Part shown: in pieces, positions 10,493-28,774 of the stretch
Numbering within the stretch: the first letter of the stretch is position 1
How the letters are laid out: each line of letters opens with the position of its first letter
Source of the DNA: Methanosphaera stadtmanae DSM 3091
GTDB taxonomy: Archaea; Methanobacteriota; Methanobacteria; Methanobacteriales; Methanobacteriaceae
DNA length: 32,000 bases
Assembly: GCF_000012545.1 (NCBI RefSeq)
Contig: NC_007681.1
Coordinates: 780,001-812,000 of the forward strand
Direction: 5' to 3'
Made by a program: the position numbers and the translations under genes
Notes under the pieces: generated by a model
Seen by the model: only the letters and a program-made list of their open reading frames with translations
What the model was told of the DNA's origin: nothing
Database searches by the model: none

Positions 10493-12427
10493 ATGAATAA
10501 ATTCGAGAAATTAATGGGTTTTCTCGAAGGTCTTAAAATGACCATAGTAGGAGGAATATTCCTATTAATAAGTTTAATATTATTAATAACAAACACAACA
10601 TTACCAATAGATCCTGCATGGGTAACTATTGTAATATGTGGACTTCCTCTTCTATACCTAGCTTTAAGTAGATTAGTCTATGAACACTGGGTATCTTCAG
10701 CATTATTAATATGTATTGCAATGGTTGCATCATTAATGATTGGTGAAATATTTGCTGCAGGTGAAGTAGTATTTATAATGGCATTAGGAGCTCTTCTTGA
10801 AGACTACACTGTAAGAAAATCAAAACAAGGATTAAGAGATTTAATAAATCTAAAACCACAAACTGGTAGATTACTAATTAAAGAAAATGGAGATATTGTA
10901 GAAAAAGAAATAAAAGTTCAGGAAATAAAAAAAGAAGATAAATTACGAGTACTTCCAGGAGAAGTAATTCCAGTAGATGGAATTATAATCAGTGGAGATA
11001 CATCTGTAGATCAATCTGTTATGACTGGTGAATCACTACCACTAGATAAAACAGTTAATGATGAAGTATATGCTGGTACTTTAAACTTATATGGTGCCAT
11101 AGATATAATCTCAACAAAAATAGGTAAAGATTCTTCACTAGAAAAATTAATTAGAATGGTTAAGGAAGCTGATGAAAAACAAGCACCAACACAAAGAATT
11201 GCAGATAAATGGGCAACATGGTTAGTACCTGTTGCATTAGCTATTGCTATTATTACATACATACTAACATGGAATATTGAAAGAGCAGTAACAATACTAG
11301 TAGTATTCTGTCCATGTGCACTGATACTTGCTACACCAACAGCTATTATGGCTGCAATTGGTCAAGCTACAAAACATGGTGTTCTTATAAAATCAGGTGA
11401 AGCTCTAGAGAAAATGGGTAATGTTAACTCCATAGCATTTGATAAAACAGGAACTTTAACCTATGGTAACCTAGAAGTATCTGATATAATACCATTGAAA
11501 GAAAATATTAGTAAAAAAATATTATTAAAATATGTAACAATTTCAGAGGTAAAATCAGAACATCCTATAGGTAAAGCCATAGTAAAATACAGTAAAAATG
11601 AATCTATCAATTATACTCAACCTGAAGAATTTAAAATGATTCCAGGAAAAGGAGTATCTGCAGTATATAATAATAAAAAAATACTATCTGGTACTATTAA
11701 ATTCATGGAAGAAAATAATATTACAATAAATAGTGAATCTATTGAAAAATTAGACTTACTAAGAAATGAAGGAAAAGCATCTATTGTAGTATCATATGAT
11801 AATGAATTAGTTGGAATAATTGGGTTATCTGATGTGTTACGTGAAACTGCTCCATATGTAGTTAATACTTTAATCAATGATTTAGATACTGATGTTGAAT
11901 TATTAACTGGAGATAATCATAAAGCTGCAAATTACTTTGCAAGTAAAGTTGGTATAACAAATATCTATTCAGAACTGTTACCTGAAAACAAGGTTGAAAT
12001 AATTGAACAATTAAAATGTGATAAGAAAACAGTGTGTATGGTTGGTGATGGAATTAATGATGCTCCAGCACTAAAAACAGCAGATGTTAGTGTTGCAATG
12101 GGTGGTATGGGTAGTGATATAGTTATTGATGCAGCAGATATTGCATTGCTAGGTGATGATATTGAAAATTTAACATATCTTAAAAAATTATCAAATGCAA
12201 CTTTATTTACAATACATCTAAGTATAACAATATCTATGATAATAAATGCAGTTGCTATTGTATGTTCAGTATTAGGACTATTAGATCCTATAAGTGGAGC
12301 ATTAGTACATAATATAGGTTCATGTGCAGTTGTAATGTTGGCAGCATCATTGTATGATAGAGATTTTTCTGATTATGCTCACAAATCTAAAGATAATATT
12401 ACTATTAAAAAACCTATTACAAATTAA
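10493..12427 (+). CDS. Heavy-metal-translocating P1B-type ATPase (Cd/Zn/Co-like; specificity unresolved), no N-terminal metal-binding domain
   Basis: Motifs TGES (MTGESLP), CPC (VVFCPCALILATP), DKTGTLT, SEHPIGKAI and GDGINDAPAL. 644 aa, starting directly in TM segments. SD AGGAG present. Confidence 0.9.
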   Translation: MNKFEKLMGFLEGLKMTIVGGIFLLISLILLITNTTLPIDPAWVTIVICGLPLLYLALSRLVYEHWVSSALLICIAMVASLMIGEIFAAGEVVFIMALGALLEDYTVRKSKQGLRDLINLKPQTGRLLIKENGDIVEKEIKVQEIKKEDKLRVLPGEVIPVDGIIISGDTSVDQSVMTGESLPLDKTVNDEVYAGTLNLYGAIDIISTKIGKDSSLEKLIRMVKEADEKQAPTQRIADKWATWLVPVALAIAIITYILTWNIERAVTILVVFCPCALILATPTAIMAAIGQATKHGVLIKSGEALEKMGNVNSIAFDKTGTLTYGNLEVSDIIPLKENISKKILLKYVTISEVKSEHPIGKAIVKYSKNESINYTQPEEFKMIPGKGVSAVYNNKKILSGTIKFMEENNITINSESIEKLDLLRNEGKASIVVSYDNELVGIIGLSDVLRETAPYVVNTLINDLDTDVELLTGDNHKAANYFASKVGITNIYSELLPENKVEIIEQLKCDKKTVCMVGDGINDAPALKTADVSVAMGGMGSDIVIDAADIALLGDDIENLTYLKKLSNATLFTIHLSITISMIINAVAIVCSVLGLLDPISGALVHNIGSCAVVMLAASLYDRDFSDYAHKSKDNITIKKPITN

Positions 12428-12456
12428 TTTTTTTTCTTTTTTTTCTATTTTTTCAT
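12428..12456 (+). terminator. Oligo-T termination tract after the ATPase
   Basis: tttttttt c tttttttt c ta tttttt immediately follows the stop codon, as is typical of archaeal oligo-T terminators. Confidence 0.4.
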
Positions 12457-13150
12457 GTTATTATTTAGTGAATAAATAGTTCTTATTTTGGGAACTTAAT
12501 TTGATATTTATTCACTATATATGAACTAAATTTCATATTAATAAACACTTTTTAGGAACTAAAATATTTTCCAAATCACTTTTTAGGAACACATATATGG
12601 GCTTTATTCACTTCATGTTGATTAAATATATGTGTTTTGCTCAAAAAAAGAAAAATATGTTCTTATTTTAAGAAAAAAAACCTTAAGGTGTATTTTTTAA
12701 GTTTTTTATTAAAATGGTTAAATGGGGTTTTTTTTATAAAATAAATATGTTTTCTTCATTTTTACAATTAACTATTTAAAATCATTATCTTATTTATAAA
12801 AATAATGTAAATATTAAGATTAAATAAAAATTAAGTCCATATAATAACTTTATTTTTCTAAAATAATGTTCACTTTTTTGGTAATTTATTCATTTGTCTT
12901 ATAAATCTAAGTTAATTATGAACTTTTTTTATTTTTAAATAGAAAAAAATAATTAATTTATAGTAAATTAATATAAAAAATATAAATTATTTAGATAATT
13001 TTAATTTTTAATTATTGAATGTTTATATATTAGTATTACATTATATAATAATAATTAATTTCAACTTTAAAAAACCATTAATTATATATGATTTATTATA
13101 ATAATGTAGGGGATTTAAAAAAAATATATATAATTTTTGGGGGATGTATT

Positions 13151-14008
13151 ATGGTCAATGAAAAAAACTCTGATAATTATCAAGAGTTGACTGAAGCCCG
13201 AAAGGATTATAAATTACATCTGACTATTTTAGTATGTATAGTGATAGCTGAATATATTGGCATGCTAACAGTAAATCTCTATGGAATTACAATAGTATTC
13301 ATGCCATTATTATATTCATTGGTTTTAGCAATTGCACTCTATTTAGCAAAACCTGTTAAATGGATTACAGATAAACAATCAAATAAAGCTAGTACAATTA
13401 TGATGCTCTTAATTGGTCCATTACTAGCTAAACTAGCAATTGCAAGTGGACAAAATATTCAGATTATTTTTAATGCTGGACCTGCAATTCTTTTACAAGA
13501 GATAGGAAACTTGGGAACAATATTTGCAGCATTACCTGTAGCATTGTTACTTGGTTTTAAACGTGAATCTATTGGAATGACAAGTTCTATATGTAGAGAG
13601 CCACAGATGGCTGTTGTTATAGATACCTTTGGATTTAATTCACCAGAAACAAAAGGATTTTTCACAGTATTTCTTATAGGTACTGTTTTAGGAACACCAT
13701 TTATTAGTTTACTAGCAAGTGTATTGGCACATGTTATTCCATTACACCCATATGCTTATGGAATGGCATGTGGTATTGGTAGTGCAAGTATGAATGCAGC
13801 AGCAGTAGCATCGTTGTGTGCTATTTTCCCTTCAGCAACAGTTCAACTAGAAGCATTTAGTGGAATGGCAAATCTGCTTTCAATGGTTACAGGTATGTAT
13901 GTTTATATATTAGTAGCTATTCCATTAACAGAATGGTTATATCGTAAACTTGAACCAGTGATTAGTCGAATTTTATTTAAAAAAGAAAATAAAAAAATAA
14001 AGGATTGA
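13151..14008 (+). CDS. Polytopic membrane protein, DUF3100-like (paralog A)
   Basis: Multi-TM protein. The ATG at 13151 is preferred over the track start at 13088: SD GGGGGAT sits 5 nt upstream and the N-terminal length matches paralog B (DYKLH motif at the same offset). The DUF3100 assignment is from memory of the family. Confidence 0.7.
   Translation: MVNEKNSDNYQELTEARKDYKLHLTILVCIVIAEYIGMLTVNLYGITIVFMPLLYSLVLAIALYLAKPVKWITDKQSNKASTIMMLLIGPLLAKLAIASGQNIQIIFNAGPAILLQEIGNLGTIFAALPVALLLGFKRESIGMTSSICREPQMAVVIDTFGFNSPETKGFFTVFLIGTVLGTPFISLLASVLAHVIPLHPYAYGMACGIGSASMNAAAVASLCAIFPSATVQLEAFSGMANLLSMVTGMYVYILVAIPLTEWLYRKLEPVISRILFKKENKKIKD
13529..13615 (+). repeat. Near-identical nucleotide tract shared with 14970-15056 (copy 1)
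   Basis: 59 nt are identical (gcattacctgtagcattgttacttggttttaaacgtgaatctattggaatgacaagttc). There are then only 3 mismatches over the next 28 nt. The flanking paralogous codons differ freely at synonymous sites. Confidence 0.85.
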
Positions 14009-14015
14009 TTTAAAA

Positions 14016-14483
14016 GTGTCAAAGATTTTATCTAAAGAAGTGGTGATGGAATGGATACTTATTTTAATTATCTTTTCTTTCATGTCTGCTATAGGTAACT
14101 ATATAGGTTATCATTATCCATTTCAAGAATCCTTATATGGTATGTTTATTTTATGTGCTATAACCTTACTAGGACTAATAATAGAACATCATATTTCATA
14201 TAACATACCTGCTATTATTTACATAAGTATTATAGGTTTAATAGTGGCACTTCCATGGTCACCAATATCAAGTACTATTATATACTATACATCAAAGGTA
14301 AATATTGTATCATTAACAACAATACTTCTAGCATATGCTGGAATAGCTATGGGAAAAGACTTAGGAGAATTTAAAAAAGTAGGTCTAAAGGGTATTATTG
14401 TTACCTTTTTTGTAATATTAGGAACATATATGGGTTCTGCATTAATTGCACAAGGAGTTTTAATGTATACTGGAATGATTTAA
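14016..14483 (+). CDS. Small (about 145-155 aa) 4-5 TM membrane protein between the two DUF3100-like genes
   Basis: Hydrophobic ORF starting 8 nt after paralog A. GTG start at 14016 (alternative ATG at 14046). No family recognised. Confidence 0.6.
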   Translation: MSKILSKEVVMEWILILIIFSFMSAIGNYIGYHYPFQESLYGMFILCAITLLGLIIEHHISYNIPAIIYISIIGLIVALPWSPISSTIIYYTSKVNIVSLTTILLAYAGIAMGKDLGEFKKVGLKGIIVTFFVILGTYMGSALIAQGVLMYTGMI

Positions 14484-14600
14484 ACTCCTTTCTAAAAAAC
14501 TTTTTTTTTAAAATATTTATATAAAATTATAGTTACTAGTAAAAATATTAAAGTATTATTCTATAAACTATTATTATACTATACAAAGGTAATAATTAAC

Positions 14601-15425
14601 ATGTTTAATAAAAAGATTATAGAATCATCAAGGGAACTTCTTGATTATAAACTACACATCACAGTACTAATTTGTGTTTTAATATCTCAAGCTATTGGAA
14701 CAGTTACTATAACAATAACTTCAGGATTTAAAATTATAATTCTACCTTTAATATTTTCATTAATACTAGTTACAATTTTATATTTAGAAAAATATGTTAC
14801 ATGGATTACTAAAAAACAATCAAAAACTTGTGGAAAAATAATGTTAATTATTATTGGACCATTAATTGCAAAATTAGCAATAACAAGTGGACAAAATATT
14901 GATTTATTAGTAAAAACAGGAATAGCCATATTTCTTGAAGAATTAGGTGATATAGGATCAATATTTATAGCATTACCTGTAGCATTGTTACTTGGTTTTA
15001 AACGTGAATCTATTGGAATGACAAGTTCCATATGTAGAGAGCCACAAATGGCAGTTATAATAGATAAATATGGTCTTTCTTCAGATGAAGTTAAGGGATT
15101 TATGATAGTATATCTTATTGGAATAATACTTGGAACAATTTTTATAAGTATAATTGCAAGTTTTTCATATTTAATTCCACTACATCCATATGCATATGCT
15201 TTAGCATGTGGAGTAGGAAGTACAAGTATGAATGTAGCAGCAGTATCATCTCTTATAACTCTTCATCCTGATTTATCAAATCAGTTATTAGCATTTAGTG
15301 GAATATCTAATTTAATTTCATTAATACTAGGGGTATATGTGTATATACTCGTATCATTACCATTAACAGAGAAATTATATGCTTATATAGAACCTATTGT
15401 AAGTAAATATATTTTTAAACGTTAA
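14601..15425 (+). CDS. Polytopic membrane protein, DUF3100-like (paralog B)
   Basis: Roughly 55% identical by eye to paralog A across the full length (shared ALPVALLLGFKRESIGMTSSICREPQMAV and IPLHPYAY). SD AAGGTAA present. Confidence 0.75.
   Translation: MFNKKIIESSRELLDYKLHITVLICVLISQAIGTVTITITSGFKIIILPLIFSLILVTILYLEKYVTWITKKQSKTCGKIMLIIIGPLIAKLAITSGQNIDLLVKTGIAIFLEELGDIGSIFIALPVALLLGFKRESIGMTSSICREPQMAVIIDKYGLSSDEVKGFMIVYLIGIILGTIFISIIASFSYLIPLHPYAYALACGVGSTSMNVAAVSSLITLHPDLSNQLLAFSGISNLISLILGVYVYILVSLPLTEKLYAYIEPIVSKYIFKR
14970..15056 (+). repeat. Near-identical nucleotide tract shared with 13529-13615 (copy 2)
   Basis: See copy 1; mismatches fall at 15029, 15047 and 15053. Confidence 0.85.
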
Positions 15426-15529
15426 TTCTTTTTTAGACTTTTTTTATTTTATTTTTTTGAATTAGACATTATATTAATCATTAGAATCAAAAATATAATT
15501 AGTAATAAAAATTTTTGGAGAATTAAATT

Positions 15530-16387
15530 ATGAGTGAATATACATTAGAAAATATAGCACAAGTTGTAGAAATATTAAGAGAAAAAAGTCCATTAACACA
15601 TTGTATTACAAATGTAGTTACTGTTAAAGATTGTGCTAATGCTGTTTTAGCAGTAGGAGCATCACCAATAATGGCAAATGCTCCAGAAGAAGCAGAAGAA
15701 ATTGTAGGTATTTCTAATTCACTTGTAATAAATATTGGAACATTAACTAAAGAACAAATAGAAACAATGAAGAAATCAGCAAAATTTGCTATTGAAAATA
15801 ATAAGCCATTCATACTAGATCCTGTAGGTGTAGGTATTAGTAACATTAGAAATCAAACACCAATCGATATTATTACAAATTCAAAACCATCTATTATTAG
15901 AGGAAATCTTTCAGAAATCAAAGCAATAGCAATGATGTATGATATATTAGATGAATGTACAATGGCAAAAGGTGTTGATGTAGCTCAATGTGATATTATA
16001 AACAAAGATACATTAATTTCTAATTGTAATCTTATTAAGAATATTTCAGAAAAATTAAATACTACAATAGCAGTATCTGGACCAATTGATATAATATCTG
16101 ATGGACATGATGTATACACAATAGAAAATGGTGATGCTATGATGTCTAGAATAACAGGTAGTGGATGTATGTTAGGATGTGTACTTGGAGCATATCTTGC
16201 AGTAACAAATCCATTAGAAGCAGCAATTACAGGTACACTTGTAATGGGTATAGCTGGAGAATTAGCTGCAAAAACAGCAAGAGATAATAACAAAGGAACA
16301 GGTTCATTTGGAATATATCTTATAGATGAATTATCAAAATTAAATAAAAGCACAATACTTTCTCAATCAAAATTAAATAAAATGTAG
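15530..16387 (+). CDS. thiM: Hydroxyethylthiazole kinase ThiM (copy 1)
   Basis: PLTHCITN, ANA..A.GASP.M, RGN.SEI and ITGSGCML motifs; 285 aa. SD GGAGA present. Confidence 0.9.
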   Translation: MSEYTLENIAQVVEILREKSPLTHCITNVVTVKDCANAVLAVGASPIMANAPEEAEEIVGISNSLVINIGTLTKEQIETMKKSAKFAIENNKPFILDPVGVGISNIRNQTPIDIITNSKPSIIRGNLSEIKAIAMMYDILDECTMAKGVDVAQCDIINKDTLISNCNLIKNISEKLNTTIAVSGPIDIISDGHDVYTIENGDAMMSRITGSGCMLGCVLGAYLAVTNPLEAAITGTLVMGIAGELAAKTARDNNKGTGSFGIYLIDELSKLNKSTILSQSKLNKM

Positions 16388-16397
16388 GTAATTGAAA

Positions 16398-17963
16398 ATG
16401 GATATTGATTATAGTGTCTATTTAGTAACTGATCAATTTGATTTTACTGAATCAGAATTTTTAAATATTATAGAGGAAGCTCTAAAAGGAAACACTACTA
16501 TTGTTCAAATAAGAGAAAAAAATAGTAGTACAAGAGATTTTTTAAATCTTGCACAGAAAGTTAAGAAATTAACTGATAAATATAATGTTCCATTAATTAT
16601 TAATGATAGAATAGACATAGCTCTTGCAGTAGATTCTGCAGGAGTTCATCTAGGTCAAGATGATATGCCTTGTAAAATAGCAAGAAAAATTATAGGACCA
16701 GATAAAATTATTGGAATCAGTGCTGAAAACTATGGGGATGCACTCCAAGCACAAGAAGATGGAGCAGACTATTTAGGTATAGGTGCTATAGAAAAAACTC
16801 CAACAAAAACAGATTGTAGTGTTATTTCAGAAGAGGATCTAAATAAAATTAAAAAAACAATAAAAATACCCCACGTAGCAATAGGTGGTGTAAAAGAACA
16901 TAATACTAGAGAAATAATAGATAAATATGGCTTTGATGGTGTAGCAATAGTTTCAGCAATTATGAAAAGTGACCTTCCAAAAGAAGCTGCAACTAACTTT
17001 TATAATCTAGTAAATAGTAAGTTAACCTTAGATGATGTTTATGCTGCTATATATGGTGTTATTGTAGGGGATGCTCTTGGTGTTCCATATGAATTTAAAC
17101 CTAGATCTACACTACAAAAAACACCTGTAACTGGAATGAGAGGTCATGGTACTTATGATAAACCAGAGGGCACTTGGTCTGATGATAGTTCTTTAACATT
17201 AGCATTAGCTGATAGTTTAGTATATGGTATAGATTATGATGATATAATGTCTAGATTTAGTAAATGGTTATATCAAAACATGTATACTCCAGAGAATGAA
17301 GTTTTTGATGTTGGACAAACTACAGAAGAAGCAATCTATAATTATACAATGGGTGTAAATCCATTAGATTGTGGTGGAGTTGAGGAATATGAAAATGGTA
17401 ATGGTTCTTTAATGAGAATAATGCCATTATTATTATATATAAATAGAAAATCAATCGATGAAAAAAGTGCTATTGAATTAATAAATAATGTTTCATCATT
17501 AACACATGCACATAAAACTAGTAAAGCTTGTTGTAATATATATAATTTCCTAGTACAAGCTATTATTGAAAATAGGGAAGCTAATAATCTTAAAACTTTA
17601 ATTAAAAAAGCAATTGAAAGGGCTAAAAAACAGTATCCACTAAAAGAATATCCAGAATTTAAATCTTTATACGATGATCTATTCTTTGATTCAGGAGAAA
17701 ATTTAGATAGTACTGGATATGTTGTAAATGCATTACAAATTGCATTCTATGCATGTTATCATAGTAGTGATTATAGTGATGCTGTGTTGTGTGCTGTGAA
17801 TTTTGGAGAAGACACTGACACAAATGCTGCTATAACTGGTGGGATTGCTGCTTTATACTATGGTTATAAATCTATTCCACCTAAATGGATCGATGTTATT
17901 ATAAATAAGGAATTAATTAATGAAGTTTTAGATGCCTTTAGTGAAGGTCTTAAACATTATTAA
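16398..17963 (+). CDS. thiE: Fusion protein: thiamine-phosphate synthase ThiE (N-terminal ~205 aa) plus ADP-ribosylglycohydrolase-family domain (C-terminal ~310 aa)
   Basis: ThiE motifs: YLVTD, VQIREK, INDRIDIA, GVHLGQDD and IGGV. ARH motifs: GVIVGDALGVPYEF, TWSDDSSLTLALA, GNGSLMRIMP and GEDTDTNAAITGG. The reading frame is uninterrupted across the junction near 17000-17040. ATG at 16398 is preferred; the track uses TTG at 16392. Confidence 0.85.
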   Translation: MDIDYSVYLVTDQFDFTESEFLNIIEEALKGNTTIVQIREKNSSTRDFLNLAQKVKKLTDKYNVPLIINDRIDIALAVDSAGVHLGQDDMPCKIARKIIGPDKIIGISAENYGDALQAQEDGADYLGIGAIEKTPTKTDCSVISEEDLNKIKKTIKIPHVAIGGVKEHNTREIIDKYGFDGVAIVSAIMKSDLPKEAATNFYNLVNSKLTLDDVYAAIYGVIVGDALGVPYEFKPRSTLQKTPVTGMRGHGTYDKPEGTWSDDSSLTLALADSLVYGIDYDDIMSRFSKWLYQNMYTPENEVFDVGQTTEEAIYNYTMGVNPLDCGGVEEYENGNGSLMRIMPLLLYINRKSIDEKSAIELINNVSSLTHAHKTSKACCNIYNFLVQAIIENREANNLKTLIKKAIERAKKQYPLKEYPEFKSLYDDLFFDSGENLDSTGYVVNALQIAFYACYHSSDYSDAVLCAVNFGEDTDTNAAITGGIAALYYGYKSIPPKWIDVIINKELINEVLDAFSEGLKHY

Positions 17964-18017
17964 TTTTCTCCTATTTTTTTTAGTATTTAATGAGTTTGGA
18001 CCATTGTATATTTTTAT

Positions 18018-18383
18018 CTAAAATTCTTTAAAAATTAGTTCTAAACCAATAGCAAATCCCATATCTTCATCATACCATCCTTTTTTCTTGTCTTGATTCA
18101 TATATAGTATGCTGTATGCTTTCATTTTATAGGTTTCATACATGACAGCCCCAGGATATTTTTTATTATATTCTAAAGGATTAATATCTAACATATATAC
18201 TAATTTTGTTGGATAGGCATCTGTACTATTTAATAACTCATTTTTTATAGATTTGGCATAGTGTCTATCGATTCTAATTTTTCCACTAAAATCTCCTGGA
18301 AGTGTATTATACCATTCAAGATAGTTTAACATTTTATTTTCTTCTTTTTGAAGTATGTTTTGAATATTTTTATCAATAGTCAT
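18018..18383 (-). CDS. Hypothetical protein, 121 aa, no family recognised
   Basis: Clean ORF with SD GAGTGAT. Soluble, with no TM segments. Confidence 0.5.
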   Translation of the reverse strand: MTIDKNIQNILQKEENKMLNYLEWYNTLPGDFSGKIRIDRHYAKSIKNELLNSTDAYPTKLVYMLDINPLEYNKKYPGAVMYETYKMKAYSILYMNQDKKKGWYDEDMGFAIGLELIFKEF

Positions 18384-18453
18384 CTAATCACTCAATAAAA
18401 AAAGTTTTTTTTTTATTTTCTTATAAAAAAGGTTGGTGGTGATATTCAAGGTA

Positions 18454-18861
18454 TTATTCTTGAATTATTATGTCTTTAAATTGTGGGAATTCTTCAATAA
18501 AATCATATATTTCTTTGTCAAGAAATTCTTCATATCTTTCCTTTTGATTTGAGTTAGGATCTGCATATTTATATTGTAATTCTGTTCTTTTTGCATATGT
18601 TTTTTCTAGTCTTTCTTTAACTTTTGGGTCAAAATTATTGAATTTTGTTGGTCTATCATGGTCATGTCCTTTATATGCAAGTCCTATGGTATTGAATCTG
18701 TATGGCATGATAGTACCAGCATTTAATGCTACTTCATACATTTCAAAGTAATGTTCTGTTATAAATTCATAGTTTAGTGTAACTGTTGATTCTTTTATGT
18801 GTTTATCGAATTCTTTTAAGTTATTTATATATTCTTCATCCCAATCTTTTCCTATACTCAT
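18454..18861 (-). CDS. Hypothetical protein, 135 aa, acidic, no family recognised
   Basis: Clean ORF with SD-like GATGTGAT. Co-directional with 18018-18383. Confidence 0.5.
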   Translation of the reverse strand: MSIGKDWDEEYINNLKEFDKHIKESTVTLNYEFITEHYFEMYEVALNAGTIMPYRFNTIGLAYKGHDHDRPTKFNNFDPKVKERLEKTYAKRTELQYKYADPNSNQKERYEEFLDKEIYDFIEEFPQFKDIIIQE

Positions 18862-19460: not shown

Positions 19461-19780
19461 ATGATTATTTCTAATTATTCTCATGAATATTCAAAATATA
19501 ACAACATTTTAATCTATCATGTTTTAAGGTGTTGGAAAGAATTCTCATCTATTGATATGGATATGGAATTATCTGGTCATACACATGAGTGTCAATTTAT
19601 TCCTGAAACATTATTTACTAGATTATTATTTAAATATAATCATGGACTTTTTTTAGTCAAGAAGTAGCAGAAAATAATATAAGAACATCATATTTATCTG
19701 TAACATATGGAATAGGTTTCTTTGCAGTACATATATGTTTAAGTACTTCTTTTGAAAATACTTGTTTTAAATATAAATAG
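19461..19780 (+). pseudogene. Frameshifted C-terminal remnant of a calcineurin-like metallophosphoesterase
   Basis: The ORF at 19461-19667 reads NILIYHVL...DMELSGHTHECQF...YNHGLF, which includes the GHTH motif. After the T7 run at 19648-19654 the sequence continues in another frame as SQEVAENNIRTSYLSVTYGIGFFAVHICLSTSFENTCFKYK*, a VS.GIG-type C-terminus ending at 19780. The N-terminal DxH/GD/GNH motifs are not recoverable upstream. Confidence 0.5.
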
Positions 19781-19830: not shown

Positions 19831-20070
19831 TTAATCTACCTCTACACTTATATATTTAGATTTATCTGATACTTTTTTTAGTACTTCAAATAAAAGTGGT
19901 GTCATACATCCTGTATTTATTATATGTATCGTGGTTTCTTCCTCTATTTTTATAAGAAATTCATATAATCTATCTATATCACCATCATATTCTGGAAAAT
20001 TAAATAGATCTTGTATATAATATATTGGATCTTTTCTTATTAATTTACCATTTATATCTATATACTTCAT
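19831..20070 (-). CDS. Divergent barstar-like protein (second copy)
   Basis: FNFPEYDGDIDRLYEFLIK aligns with barstar LPEYYGENLDALWDCLTG, keeping the D35 equivalent and replacing D39 with E. Its ATG abuts the stop codon of the upstream barstar with no gap. SD GTGAT lies inside the upstream gene. Confidence 0.65.
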   Translation of the reverse strand: MKYIDINGKLIRKDPIYYIQDLFNFPEYDGDIDRLYEFLIKIEEETTIHIINTGCMTPLLFEVLKKVSDKSKYISVEVD

Positions 20071-20313
20071 TTAATCACTACTAAATGTTAAATAATTACT
20101 TTCACATGCTGCATCATAGAATGTGTCATATAAATCCTTAGATATTTCATTACTATTTATTAGATGAATCTCTGTTTTTACACCAATACTTGTAAGACAA
20201 TCATATAAAGCATCAAGATTTCTTCCATAATAATCTGGTAAATCTAATTTTTTAATTAAATAGTCATGTGTTTTAAGTTTAATTTTTTTACCATCTAATA
20301 TTACAATATTCAA
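20071..20313 (-). CDS. Barstar (barnase inhibitor)
   Basis: LDLPDYYGRNLDALYDCLTS is near-identical to the barstar binding helix (Y29, D35 and D39 equivalents present). TTG start with SD GGTGA, 19 nt after the barnase stop. Confidence 0.85.
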   Translation of the reverse strand: MNIVILDGKKIKLKTHDYLIKKLDLPDYYGRNLDALYDCLTSIGVKTEIHLINSNEISKDLYDTFYDAACESNYLTFSSD

Positions 20314-20332: not shown

Positions 20333-20782
20333 CTATATTTCATTAAATGTTTTATAGTGATCTGTAGTGTAGTAGACTTTATAATTTTCAGTAGAATATA
20401 CTATTCTTTTGGAACCACGTGTGGTACCATTTGCATCAATATCACATTCTATATATTTTGATGTACTAGTTGGAAGTATTTTCTGCCTATTTGTAAAAAC
20501 ATCTCCACCAATACTTTTTCCAGGTGCATATTCTTTTAATGGACCACCATTCCATCCAAGTTTTTGTGCTTCTTTTTTAGTTATATAATTACTTGGAAGT
20601 TTATGATATTCTTTTATATAAGCTGCCACTTCATCAACAGTACAATATTGTCCATTTTCAACAATATGTATATTGGTTGTATTATTGTTACTAATTATAT
20701 TATTATCATGGTCTGATAGGATATTTACTCCAAAAACACTACCTAGAATGGCAATAATAACAATAGTAATTACTGATATCAT
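20333..20782 (-). CDS. Barnase-family guanyl-specific ribonuclease with N-terminal hydrophobic signal/anchor
   Basis: YHKLPSNYITKKEAQKLGW...APGKSIGGDVFTNRQ...YIECDID...TRGSKRIVYS...YYTTDHYKTFNEI aligns with B. amyloliquefaciens barnase. Equivalents of catalytic K27, E73, R83, R87 and H102 are all present. The N-terminus MISVITIVIIAILGSVFGV is a TM/signal segment. Confidence 0.9.
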   Translation of the reverse strand: MISVITIVIIAILGSVFGVNILSDHDNNIISNNNTTNIHIVENGQYCTVDEVAAYIKEYHKLPSNYITKKEAQKLGWNGGPLKEYAPGKSIGGDVFTNRQKILPTSTSKYIECDIDANGTTRGSKRIVYSTENYKVYYTTDHYKTFNEI

Positions 20783-25214: not shown

Positions 25215-25520
25215 TTATTCAAGTAATTTATTTACAGTATCAACCTTAGCATCAAGTGTACGATTTTCTAAATCTCTTCTATCATCAATTTTAATAACAG
25301 AATAAACTCTACCAATACCTGCTTCAAAAACTGCTTCTTGTGCTTTAGCTAATACTGGATATAATTCTTCATAACTATTAGCTTCAATCTGTGTACCCAT
25401 ACCAGTTAATTGGTAATTAAGATTAGAATCTTTAATAACTTGTACTGCTGCTGTTACAAATTTTTTTAATTCAGTACCATCTGTTCCAACTGGTAATATT
25501 GCAAAATCTGCTGTTATCAT
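25215..25520 (-). CDS. MTH1187/YkoF-related (UPF0045) putative thiamine/HMP-binding protein
   Basis: MITADFAILPVGT...YQLTGMGTQIE...IKIDDRRD matches the ~100-aa MTH1187 family pattern. ATG at 25520 is preferred over the track's GTG at 25529: SD GGAGTGAT sits 4 nt upstream and it lies 5 nt after the thiM stop. Confidence 0.75.
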   Translation of the reverse strand: MITADFAILPVGTDGTELKKFVTAAVQVIKDSNLNYQLTGMGTQIEANSYEELYPVLAKAQEAVFEAGIGRVYSVIKIDDRRDLENRTLDAKVDTVNKLLE

Positions 25521-25525
25521 AAATA

Positions 25526-26374
25526 TCACTCCAATTTATATAACTTTCCATATTTCATAATAGTTTCATCATTCATATTATACATCATATCAATCAGATA
25601 TGTTCTAAAAGAACCTGAACCTTCATTATTTATTTCCATTTTTCTTCTTGCTAATTCTCCAGAAATAGCCATGGATAAACTTCCAATAATTGCTGCTTCT
25701 AGTGGACTTGTAATAGCACAAAAGGATCCGATAACACAGGTAAGCATACAACCACTACCTGTAATTTTAGACATGACTTCTTCACCATTATCAATAAGAT
25801 AGATACTTACTCCATCTGAAATAATATCTATTGCACCAGAAACTGCAATTGTTGTATTAAGTTTATCTGCAACAGCTTTTACTAAAGAAGCATTTGATTT
25901 AATATTATCTTTTGTAATAATATCATCACTTGAAACATCTACTCCTTTAGCTACAGATTTTTCATCTGTAATATTAAAAAGATTAGCAATAGCTTTTATT
26001 TCAGACATATTTCCACGAATAACATCAACTGATGATTTATTAATCAAATCAATAGTAATATCATTTCTTAATTTAGAAACACCTACAGCAACTGGATCAA
26101 GAACAAGGGGTGTGTTTGTCTTTTTTGTATGACAAGCTGCAATTTGCATTGGTTCTATTTGATCTTCAAGTAAAGTACCCATATTAATGATAGTAACACC
26201 TGCAGCTTCAACAAATTCTTCAATCTCAGGAGCTTCATTTGCCATAGCTGGTGATCCACCAATAGCAAGTACAACATTAGCACAGTCATTAATTGTTACA
26301 TAATTTGTAATACAATGTGTTAATGGACATTTATTTCTTAGTTTTTCTATATTTTTACTACATTGTTCTAACAT
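25526..26374 (-). CDS. thiM: Hydroxyethylthiazole kinase ThiM (copy 2, about 50% identical to copy 1 by eye)
   Basis: PLTHCITN, AIGGSPAMAN, RGNMSEIKAIA and ITGSGCML motifs; 282 aa. No obvious SD, so the transcript may be leaderless or short-leadered. Confidence 0.9.
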   Translation of the reverse strand: MLEQCSKNIEKLRNKCPLTHCITNYVTINDCANVVLAIGGSPAMANEAPEIEEFVEAAGVTIINMGTLLEDQIEPMQIAACHTKKTNTPLVLDPVAVGVSKLRNDITIDLINKSSVDVIRGNMSEIKAIANLFNITDEKSVAKGVDVSSDDIITKDNIKSNASLVKAVADKLNTTIAVSGAIDIISDGVSIYLIDNGEEVMSKITGSGCMLTCVIGSFCAITSPLEAAIIGSLSMAISGELARRKMEINNEGSGSFRTYLIDMMYNMNDETIMKYGKLYKLE

Positions 26375-28108: not shown

Positions 28109-28774
28109 TCACCTTTTCTTTAGATAAATTAGAATTTTACCTATATTATTTATATCATTCATATTTGTATATATATTAAATGTTTCAAAATCATTACAAT
28201 CATTTATATAATCATAGTCTGTAGATAAAATACTTCCATCTTTAGCATAAAAGACAACAGTTATAGTAAGATCTATCTTTTTTGAAGAGTTTCTTATCTC
28301 ACCACATACAGTAATACTTTCTTGATTAGAATCCAATTCTGCTACAGAAACATTTGATAGATCAATTCCTTCTTTTTCATAGTTATTTTTTAATTCAATA
28401 TAACTACTTAATATTTCACGTTTTCTATCAAGACTATAAATATATTCTAAACCCATATTTTCTAGTACATCTTCTTTAGTTTTACCAGTAGGAATATTGA
28501 TATCTGTAGATATATTTTCTAATGTTTCAATAATTTCATCTTGTTTATCTAGTATAGAATCTACTATTGTATTAAGATTATTATACATATCTTCTAATTT
28601 TTCAATACTTAACTCAAGATTGTGGATATGTTCTGATTGGTTTTGTTTATCAGATACTTTTTTATAAACTTCCTGTATTTTTTTATTTAGACTATTGAAT
28701 TCATTTACCATATCATCATTAATTTTAAGTATTTGGTGTGTATTATGAATTTTATTTTCCTTATTTGATTCCAT
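28109..28774 (-). CDS. Coiled-coil protein with C-terminal FxLYD-like beta domain (paralog 1)
   Basis: The N-terminal ~100 aa are heptad-like (QEVYKKVSDKQNQSEHIHNLELSIEKLEDMYNNLNTIVDSILDKQDEIIETLENI). The C-terminus ITVCGEIRNSSKKIDLTITVVFYAKDGSILSTDYDYI resembles the FxLYD domain pattern. SD GAGGT present. Confidence 0.55.
   Translation of the reverse strand: MESNKENKIHNTHQILKINDDMVNEFNSLNKKIQEVYKKVSDKQNQSEHIHNLELSIEKLEDMYNNLNTIVDSILDKQDEIIETLENISTDINIPTGKTKEDVLENMGLEYIYSLDRKREILSSYIELKNNYEKEGIDLSNVSVAELDSNQESITVCGEIRNSSKKIDLTITVVFYAKDGSILSTDYDYINDCNDFETFNIYTNMNDINNIGKILIYLKKR

Follow-up and report, generated by a model that had tools for sequence, protein, structure and literature searches.

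An in-frame fusion of thiamine phosphate synthase to an ADP-ribosylglycohydrolase domain in Methanosphaera stadtmanae and its close relatives

Among described enzymes of the ADP-ribosylglycohydrolase (ARH) family, DraG and Tri1 are defined by an E-D-D catalytic triad (PMC8120803), and Asp97 has been described as specific to DraG (PMC7050489). Thiamine phosphate synthase (ThiE) is often fused to other enzymes, as in yeast THI6, which joins ThiE to ThiM (3NL2), in fusions of ThiE with phosphomethylpyrimidine kinase (PRK09517), and in proteins that join a Nudix domain to a TMP-TENI-like domain (PRK08999). Here we examine a 32,000-nucleotide stretch of the genome of the archaeon Methanosphaera stadtmanae DSM 3091 (NC_007681.1, positions 780,001 to 812,000; hereafter the window), in which a ThiE is fused in frame to an ARH domain. 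This architecture is undescribed in the literature searched, whereas neither domain is unusual for the known family to which it belongs. With moderate confidence, we favor the view that the ARH half would be a general de-ADP-ribosylase of the immunity/DraG class, its attachment to ThiE being a consequence of gene position.

The fused protein and its two domains

The fusion is encoded by a single unbroken open reading frame (ORF) of 521 amino acids on the forward strand, with an ATG at 16398 and a stop at 17961-17963; an in-frame TTG upstream, at 16392, provides an alternative start that would add two residues. ThiE (residues 1-205) is followed by an 8-residue linker and by the ARH domain (residues ∼214-521).

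16398-17963, + strand: fused thiE::ARH gene, 521 amino acids plus stop (ABC57081.1 / Q2NGH2)
16398-17012, + strand: ThiE domain, residues 1-205, supported by TIGR00693, alignment, Foldseek, and a ratio of nonsynonymous to synonymous substitution rates (dN/dS) of 0.07-0.16
17013-17036, + strand: linker NSKLTLDD, residues 206-213, at the site of the former thiE stop/ARH start overlap
17037-17963, + strand: ARH domain, residues 214-521, supported by PF03747, phmmer and Foldseek matches to 8za7, and dN/dS of 0.19-0.38
ThiE motifs (residues of the fused protein): QIREK 37-41, INDR 68-71, HLGQDD 84-89, GISA 106-109, TPTKTD 134-139, AIGGV 161-165, IVSAI 184-188
ARH motifs (residues of the fused protein): GDALGVPYEF 224-233 (with the catalytic Glu, 232), WSDDSS 260-265, FDVGQTT 303-309, NGNGSLMR 333-340, LTHAH 368-372, STGYVV 438-443 (with the adenine-stacking Tyr), GEDTDTNA 470-477

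A reading of the sequence alone, made before this analysis, had proposed an in-frame fusion of ThiE to ARH within one 521-residue frame and a complete ThiE in its N-terminal half, and both proposals are borne out. Each Pfam match covers nearly the full length of its model: TMP-TENI (PF02581) at residues 7-188 (E 5e-62; 208.9 bits against a cutoff of 27; 180 of 180 model positions) and ADP_ribosyl_GH (PF03747) at residues 216-495 (E 3.5e-70; 237 bits against a cutoff of 26.2; 286 of 287 model positions). The fused protein also scores 214.3 bits against the NCBIfam model for thiE (TIGR00693), above the curated cutoff of 145.1. It is identical to the M. stadtmanae DSM 3091 protein ABC57081.1 / WP_011406281.1 / UniRef100_Q2NGH2, which RefSeq and UniProt label solely as “thiamine phosphate synthase”, leaving 60% of the chain unmentioned, and a 525-residue fusion from Candidatus Methanosphaera massiliense likewise carries merely that name. 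The fusion has been public for years, though named after the first 40% of its chain only, an annotation that in both proteins hides the ARH half whichever reading of its function holds.

The N-terminal half is predicted to be an ordinary ThiE. It aligns end to end with the enzymes of Pyrococcus furiosus (1xi3) and Bacillus subtilis (1g4t) and retains the motifs for substrate and Mg binding, and its model matches 1XI3 with a Foldseek template modeling (TM) score of 0.92. The substrate and Mg residues of the B. subtilis enzyme used in this comparison are Q57/R59/K61, N92/D93, D112, S130, and T156/T158/K159.

The ARH half was aligned to 6dre, 2cwc, 1t5j, 2woc, and 2woe. The three motifs by which the sequence-only reading had recognized this domain, GDALG (residues 224-228), SDDS (261-264), and DTDTNA (472-477), are all present, and on proper alignment with DraG, Tri1, and Lmo0067, none of the metal ligands proved to be substituted and all catalytic residues are kept. 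The ligands of the predicted binuclear metal site (E232, D262/D263, and D472/D474/T475) are invariant in the four known fusions and in 17 Methanosphaera-type ARHs. D304 is the equivalent of Asp97 of RruDraG, the D97N variant of which (2WOE) shows N at the aligned position, and the E-D-D triad is conserved including this class-specific Asp. The Tyr of the GYV motif matches the adenine-stacking tyrosine. The Glu of the ExxA motif, involved in adenine binding by DraG, is not conserved, being read from the alignment as E in the window protein and K in the other three fusions.

The closest solved match to the ARH half is Lmo0067 (8ZA7; phmmer E 4e-68, profile E 1e-99, Foldseek TM 0.88, root-mean-square deviation 1.7 Å over 312 columns), followed in order by the Tre1-Tri1 pair (6DRE/6DRH), Thermus 2CWC, DraG, and Methanocaldococcus jannaschii MJ1187. 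In an AlphaFold2 model of the two-domain chain (predicted local distance difference test score [pLDDT] 94.7, predicted TM score [pTM] 0.82), the domain assumes the all-helical ARH fold, with Foldseek TM of 0.83-0.88 to 8za7, 2woc, 2cwc, and 3o5t. Scores against curated family models fall short of orthology: the DraG model TIGR02662 gives 108.6 bits against a cutoff of 337, and the Tri1-family model NF041672 gives 147 bits against a cutoff of 490, yet the latter is the best-scoring NCBIfam model for the ARH domain. As far as sequence can tell, the ARH half belongs to the DraG/Tri1 class of hydrolases, with its catalytic residues intact, and is the orthologue of neither, and both halves of the fusion are apparently catalytically competent.

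Conservation and origin of the fusion

The identical 521-residue sequence is recorded on 159 contigs, including a complete genome (1,767,403-bp record). Its 90% identity cluster has 157 members, of which 40 were read and 15 listed; 13 of the other listed members are 521 amino acids long, and one is a 114-residue fragment. Among 5.8 billion protein clusters, both domains occur together in four only, namely, that of the window and three at 71, 67, and 63% identity, the last being Candidatus Methanosphaera massiliense / sp. Vir-13MRS; by this count, the ThiE-ARH architecture is confined to four Methanosphaera species clusters. The three fusions outside DSM 3091 show the same thiM-thiE::ARH synteny on independently assembled contigs. 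An assembly artifact at the junction, raised as a possibility by the sequence-only reading, is ruled out by the 159 contigs and the syntenic fusions in three further Methanosphaera species.

When the four fusions were aligned, both domains were well conserved, and the junction of 8 to 11 residues was variable with insertions and deletions. Estimates of dN/dS by the Nei-Gojobori method, which are rough as synonymous sites are near saturation, were 0.07 to 0.16 for ThiE, 0.19 to 0.38 for ARH, and 0.4 to 2.1 (∼1) for the linker across five pairs. The ThiE and ARH halves are thus under purifying selection and selectively maintained, since their ratios are low, unlike that of the linker, which evolves neutrally. 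Degeneration of the ARH domain is ruled out by its fully conserved motifs and dN/dS below 0.4.

Elsewhere in the genus, the two genes remain separate. The nearest stand-alone ARH (56% identity) lies directly 3′ of a thiE of 209 to 211 codons, with a stop/start overlap of 14 nt (loci L007 and L008). An ATGA overlap of 4 nt joins thiE and ARH in RUG14233 (L013), the SIG23 metagenome-assembled genome (MAG; L014), and sp. rholeuAM6 (L095), so that overlaps of 4 or 14 nt are found in five Methanosphaera lineages; the exception is strain BMS (L103), in which the genes are separated by a 24-nt spacer. The metagenomic contig L015 also carries thiM-thiE-ARH. The linker of the fusions coincides with the position of the stop/start overlap in the unfused relatives. 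Because thiE and ARH are still separate, and overlapping or adjacent, in these other species, the fusion can be traced to a merger of two adjoining operon genes in which the thiE stop was lost inside the overlap.

The main groupings, {L003,{window,L001}}, {L007,L002}, and {L095,L013}, are recovered by neighbor joining from ThiE as well as from ARH, some of them weakly bootstrapped, which fits vertical coinheritance of the thiE-ARH pair from early in the genus. In the ThiE tree, a single clade with 100% bootstrap unites the four species that carry the fusion with L007, in which the genes are separate, and with Methanosphaera sp. WGK6, which has no ARH gene at the site. Bootstrap values inside this stadtmanae-group clade are 21 to 60%, at which one fusion followed by a fission and two separate fusions are not separable.

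Three lineages, Methanosphaera sp. WGK6 (L101), L012, and L102, keep the transporter-thiM-thiE arrangement and have no ARH gene after thiE, and no ARH remnant was detected at these sites by tblastn (E≤10). L012 is an uncultured Methanobacteriaceae MAG with a ThiE 79% identical to that of the window. L102 represents a widespread lineage labeled “M. stadtmanae” in MAG records and is sister to L095 and L013, both of which bear ARH (100% bootstrap). As these three lineages run the operon without it, the ARH gene is dispensable at the thi site. Among MAG records titled “Methanosphaera stadtmanae” (L014, L102, P0019), several have a ThiE only 64 to 68% identical to that of DSM 3091 and a different gene content at the locus; such records probably belong to other species, making their species labels unreliable.

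Possible roles of the ARH half

By analogy, the ARH half most likely works like Lmo0067, Tri1, and DraG. Its two-metal site would hydrolyze the N-glycosidic ADP-ribosyl-arginine bond, erasing ADP-ribosylation from proteins, and it would be coexpressed with ThiE, and tethered to it in four species, owing to gene location rather than as a step of thiamine synthesis. This reading is favored because the closest solved relatives are immunity hydrolases against ADP-ribosyltransferase (ART) toxins and because the E-D-D triad is kept. Conversely, absence of the ARH gene from the site in three lineages, the existence of unlinked paralogues, and the lack of linkage beyond the genus argue against a dedicated role in thiamine metabolism.

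The evidence on linkage comes from two surveys. When 1.84 billion representative proteins were scanned exhaustively by HMMER with the complete fusion as query, 29,550 matched, and the best 150 of these were single-domain matches with no independent fusion of ThiE and ARH among them; long candidates were rejected, as they joined ARH to CpsB, DnaB_C, Metallophos, the RNA polymerase alpha C-terminal domain, or a second ARH. Among 80 metagenomic ARH loci (38-49% identity), thiE or thiM lies within 6 kb of the ARH gene solely in the Methanosphaera-like L015, and the other 79 have no thi gene within that distance. The immediate neighbors in these 79 loci are heterogeneous (108 Pfam families); the recurrent ones, R2K ATP-grasp, WYL/WCX, GNAT, Macro, a second ARH, and an AbiEii-like AAA protein, appear typical of ADP-ribose or conflict systems. 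Linkage to thi genes in other genomes, by which the sequence-only reading had proposed to judge the fusion, therefore holds within Methanosphaera and fails outside the genus, with the ARH gene missing at the site in three lineages. Within Methanosphaera, ARH paralogues away from thi genes are found beside an integrase (P0019), as a tandem pair (P0009), and beside DUF2779 and Exo_endo_phos (P0032). These unlinked copies fall within the thi-linked ARH clade (96% bootstrap) and therefore give no sign of a distinct “thiamine-type” ARH subfamily. No match to PADLOC anti-phage families was found for the ARH domain or for six of the seven neighboring ORFs scanned, the seventh (28109-28774) giving a marginal match to LmuB (E 0.001).

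Further variety was seen in the family. Additional copies suggest that it has expanded in Methanosphaera: a tandem pair of 312 and 262 amino acids is present in L009-L011 (L009, 8001-9742), and L014 (6352-8746) has a very divergent second ARH ∼500 bp downstream of its thiE-ARH pair. Many bacterial ARH homologues carry a C-terminal DUF6508 (PF20118; P0059, P0076, P0080, P0085-P0089, and P0093, with P0080 also carrying NUDIX), a recurrent uncharacterized architecture that may be more telling about the general substrate of the family than is the ThiE fusion. A Metallophos-ARH fusion occurs in an unrelated organism (P0179).

Several observations weigh against attachment to ThiE as a mere consequence of gene position. 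The thiE-ARH pair is kept in 10 of the 13 thiE loci sampled, persists despite differing upstream genes (SIG23 has neither thiM nor DUF3100, and BMS has no DUF3100), and appears to be ancestral to the genus. The stop/start overlap implies translational coupling of the two genes, the fusion has outlasted several speciations, with synonymous divergence near saturation, and fused enzymes frequently serve one pathway. The pTM of 0.82, together with the short stretch of only ∼4 nonhelical residues between the domains in the AlphaFold model, hints at a fixed domain arrangement. With respect to immunity, no ART domain or gene was found by Pfam among the window ORFs scanned, and such a role would presuppose that interbacterial ART toxins reach archaea. 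Pfam ART domains were also absent among the listed neighbors of related thiE-ARH loci. As no ART gene adjoins it, the ARH half has no recognizable toxin-immunity pairing and would be, at best, an “orphan” hydrolase of the ART-toxin immunity class. Nor were nif genes or a nitrogenase context found among the window ORFs scanned.

A thiamine-specific job for the ARH half is a tentative alternative, in which it would either free thiazole or thiamine from an (ADP-)ribosyl conjugate or erase an inhibitory arginine ADP-ribosylation of ThiE. Such a job would be set in the operon that the fusion closes, which comprises the following upstream genes.

13088-14008, + strand: DUF3100 membrane protein, putative transporter subunit (PF11299, E 2e-88), first gene of the cluster upstream of thiM
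14016-14483, + strand: hydrophobic ORF of 155 amino acids between the DUF3100 genes, no Pfam or NCBIfam match, 64-81% identity in L003 and L013
14601-15425, + strand: second DUF3100 membrane protein (PF11299, E 8e-84)
15530-16387, + strand: thiM, hydroxyethylthiazole kinase (PF02110, E 3e-72; NF006830, 289 bits against a cutoff of 180)

The same gene order upstream of thiM is found in L003, L013, L095, L101, and L102, and most of the Methanosphaera loci examined have the DUF3100/155-residue/DUF3100 trio ahead of thiM. Such an arrangement suggests that the trio is an uncharacterized transporter of thiazole or a thiamine precursor, and a literature search on DUF3100 found nothing relevant. The whole reads as a thiazole-salvage operon consisting of a putative transporter, ThiM, and ThiE, the latter last. 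No thiamine pyrophosphate riboswitch or other Rfam element was found at the operon at the gathering threshold, nor at E≤1 over 12000-18500. According to a published listing, M. stadtmanae DSM 3091 requires thiamin in culture (PMC10658910, citing Miller and Wolin 1985).

In the first form of a thiamine-specific job, which we regard as improbable, the ARH half would act in salvage by cleaving a compound related to thiazole or thiamine from a ribosyl or ADP-ribosyl group conjugated to it, with the heterocycle then passing to ThiM and ThiE. An example, put forward just as hesitantly, would be an N-glycosidic ADP-ribosyl-thiazolium adduct arising from NADase base exchange or from an ADP-ribosyltransferase and perhaps imported via the DUF3100 system. 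Genus-wide conservation of the thiE-ARH pair and of its stop/start overlap, retention of the fusion in four species with both halves under purifying selection, the salvage operon in a thiamin-requiring organism, the intact ARH active site, and the packed two-domain unit suggested by the pTM of 0.82 are all consistent with this form. However, we know of no ADP-ribosyl- or ribosyl-thiazole metabolite of the proposed type, and a literature search linking ARH enzymes with thiamine found nothing, in agreement with the remark of the sequence-only reading that no thiamine function had been described for an ARH domain. Furthermore, the linkage is limited to Methanosphaera; WGK6, L012, and L102 keep transporter-thiM-thiE and do without the ARH gene at this site; and the nesting of unlinked paralogues in the thi-linked clade (96% bootstrap) leaves no thiamine-specific subfamily. 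The known intermediate ADP-thiazole (ADT) itself offers no glycosidic bond to an ARH.

In the second form, which we consider more improbable still, arginine ADP-ribosylation would inactivate ThiE, ThiM, or another thiamine enzyme, and the ARH half, as a tethered eraser, would restore its activity in the manner of DraG. The sequence-only reading had offered regulation by de-ADP-ribosylation as its alternative, and such regulation may occur, although no writer enzyme was found for it. DraG is a precedent for such a metabolic switch, acting on nitrogenase reductase; its class of catalytic residues is present here, and fusion to ThiE places an eraser beside a possible target. However, neither the window nor the surroundings of the pair in the loci examined contain a DraT-like or other ART gene, the DraG model score (109 bits against a cutoff of 337) does not indicate a DraG orthologue, and three lineages run the same operon without an ARH gene.

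The sequence-only reading had also suggested that the ARH half trims Thi4-derived ADT. ADT is made by Thi4 from NAD and glycine (PMC8454699), and its conversion to thiazole phosphate is a pyrophosphate cleavage for which a NUDIX-type hydrolase is predicted, the enzyme being still unidentified (PMC4215014). Pfam identifies the domain fused to ThiE as an ARH glycohydrolase, not a Nudix hydrolase. The carbons that were once ribose make up the thiazole and its side chain in ADT, which consequently lacks the ribosyl C1″ glycosidic bond on which an ARH would act; the step calls for a pyrophosphatase. The salvage operon, moreover, yields thiazole phosphate directly by a kinase, the host requires thiamin, and the linkage is restricted to one genus and dispensable within it. 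No thi4 gene is present in the 32-kb window. The chemistry, salvage context, thiamin requirement, and genus-restricted, dispensable linkage together make ADT trimming by the ARH half unlikely.

That the fusion is an assembly or sequencing artifact, or the ARH half a decaying remnant, is almost certainly wrong: its single hint is the faster evolution of the ARH half relative to ThiE, against which stand the 159 contigs, the complete genome, the fusions in three other species, an ARH dN/dS of 0.19 to 0.38, catalytic motifs invariant in four fusions, and a model pLDDT of 94.7.

If the fusion reflects function, it would suggest that ADP-ribose chemistry and the salvage of vitamin B1 are connected, in a prominent archaeon of the human gut, in a way not yet described, and it would open archaeal ADP-ribosylation, a nearly unstudied subject, to experimental tests. 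Release of a thiazole or thiamine moiety from its conjugate would be a step of salvage or damage repair new to science, found in a gut archaeon that requires thiamin. With an eraser acting on ThiE, vitamin B1 metabolism would have its first switch based on ADP-ribosylation, and this in a methanogen. Should the fusion instead be incidental, which we judge the likelier case, it shows cleanly, and in a datable way, how loss of a stop codon fuses two translationally coupled genes, and it is a caution against inferring pathway function from a lineage-restricted “Rosetta stone” fusion.

Neighboring features and comparison with known systems

The window has a G+C content of ∼26%, and its archaeal markers include a class V FBP aldolase/phosphatase. 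A second ThiM paralogue (25526-26374, − strand; PF02110, E 6e-68), 53% identical to the ThiM of the operon, is followed by a 104-residue Thiamine_BP / YkoF-MTH1187-like protein (25215-25529, − strand; PF01910, E 2e-29). The pair is also present, with Pfam annotation, in L003, and L014 has size-matched ORFs in the same order, of which the ThiM2 match is confirmed and the 101-residue ORF is matched by size only. Two thiazole-kinase-like genes are retained, without explanation, in a thiamin-requiring organism.

Downstream of the fusion, two small ORFs of 121 and 135 amino acids on the opposite strand (18018-18861, − strand) have no Pfam or PADLOC match; ORFs of similar size and placement are seen in L001, L003, L012, and WGK6. 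At 19500-19756 (+ strand) lies a frameshifted C-terminal remnant of a Metallophos (calcineurin-like phosphoesterase) gene, matching residues 262-347 of 358. As an intact copy follows the thi operon in L001, L002, L003, L007, and WGK6, that of DSM 3091 is a pseudogene. A barnase-like secreted ribonuclease gene (20333-20782, − strand) is followed by a barstar gene (20071-20313, − strand) and by a second barstar-sized ORF without a Pfam match (19831-20070, − strand); this toxin/immunity set is syntenic across the genus near the thi operon. Upstream, a 660-bp, extremely AT-rich intergenic region (12428-13087), long for an archaeal genome, extends from a P-type ATPase gene to the first DUF3100 gene.

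Of the described ARHs, Lmo0067 of Listeria monocytogenes is the closest, sharing with the ARH half the motifs GDxLGVPxEF, WSDDSS, FDxG, NGNGxxMR, THAH, SSGYVV, and GxDTDT. Lmo0067 is a stand-alone protein of 332 amino acids deposited as one half of a toxin/immunity pair, whereas the ARH of the window is fused behind ThiE with no ART gene nearby. The role of Lmo0067 is taken from the title of the PDB entry alone (“ART-ARH type toxin effector-immunity protein pair”), no paper having been found by literature search. Tri1 of Serratia proteamaculans (6DRE/6DRH), a type VI secretion system immunity protein that reverses arginine ADP-ribosylation by Tre1, shares the DraG-like fold and the E-D-D triad; Tri1 has a toxin-occluding N-terminal extension and adjoins tre1, whereas the ARH of the window has neither feature. 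DraG (2WOC, 3G9D) shares the binuclear-metal ARH fold, Asp97, and the adenine-stacking Tyr; it has a DraT partner and a nitrogenase context, and the window ARH is without both. The N-terminal half, finally, is standard when set beside ThiE structures (1XI3, 2TPS). The known fusion partners of ThiE are thiamine-pathway kinases or a Nudix hydrolase, whereas an ARH partner is seen only in the four Methanosphaera clusters.

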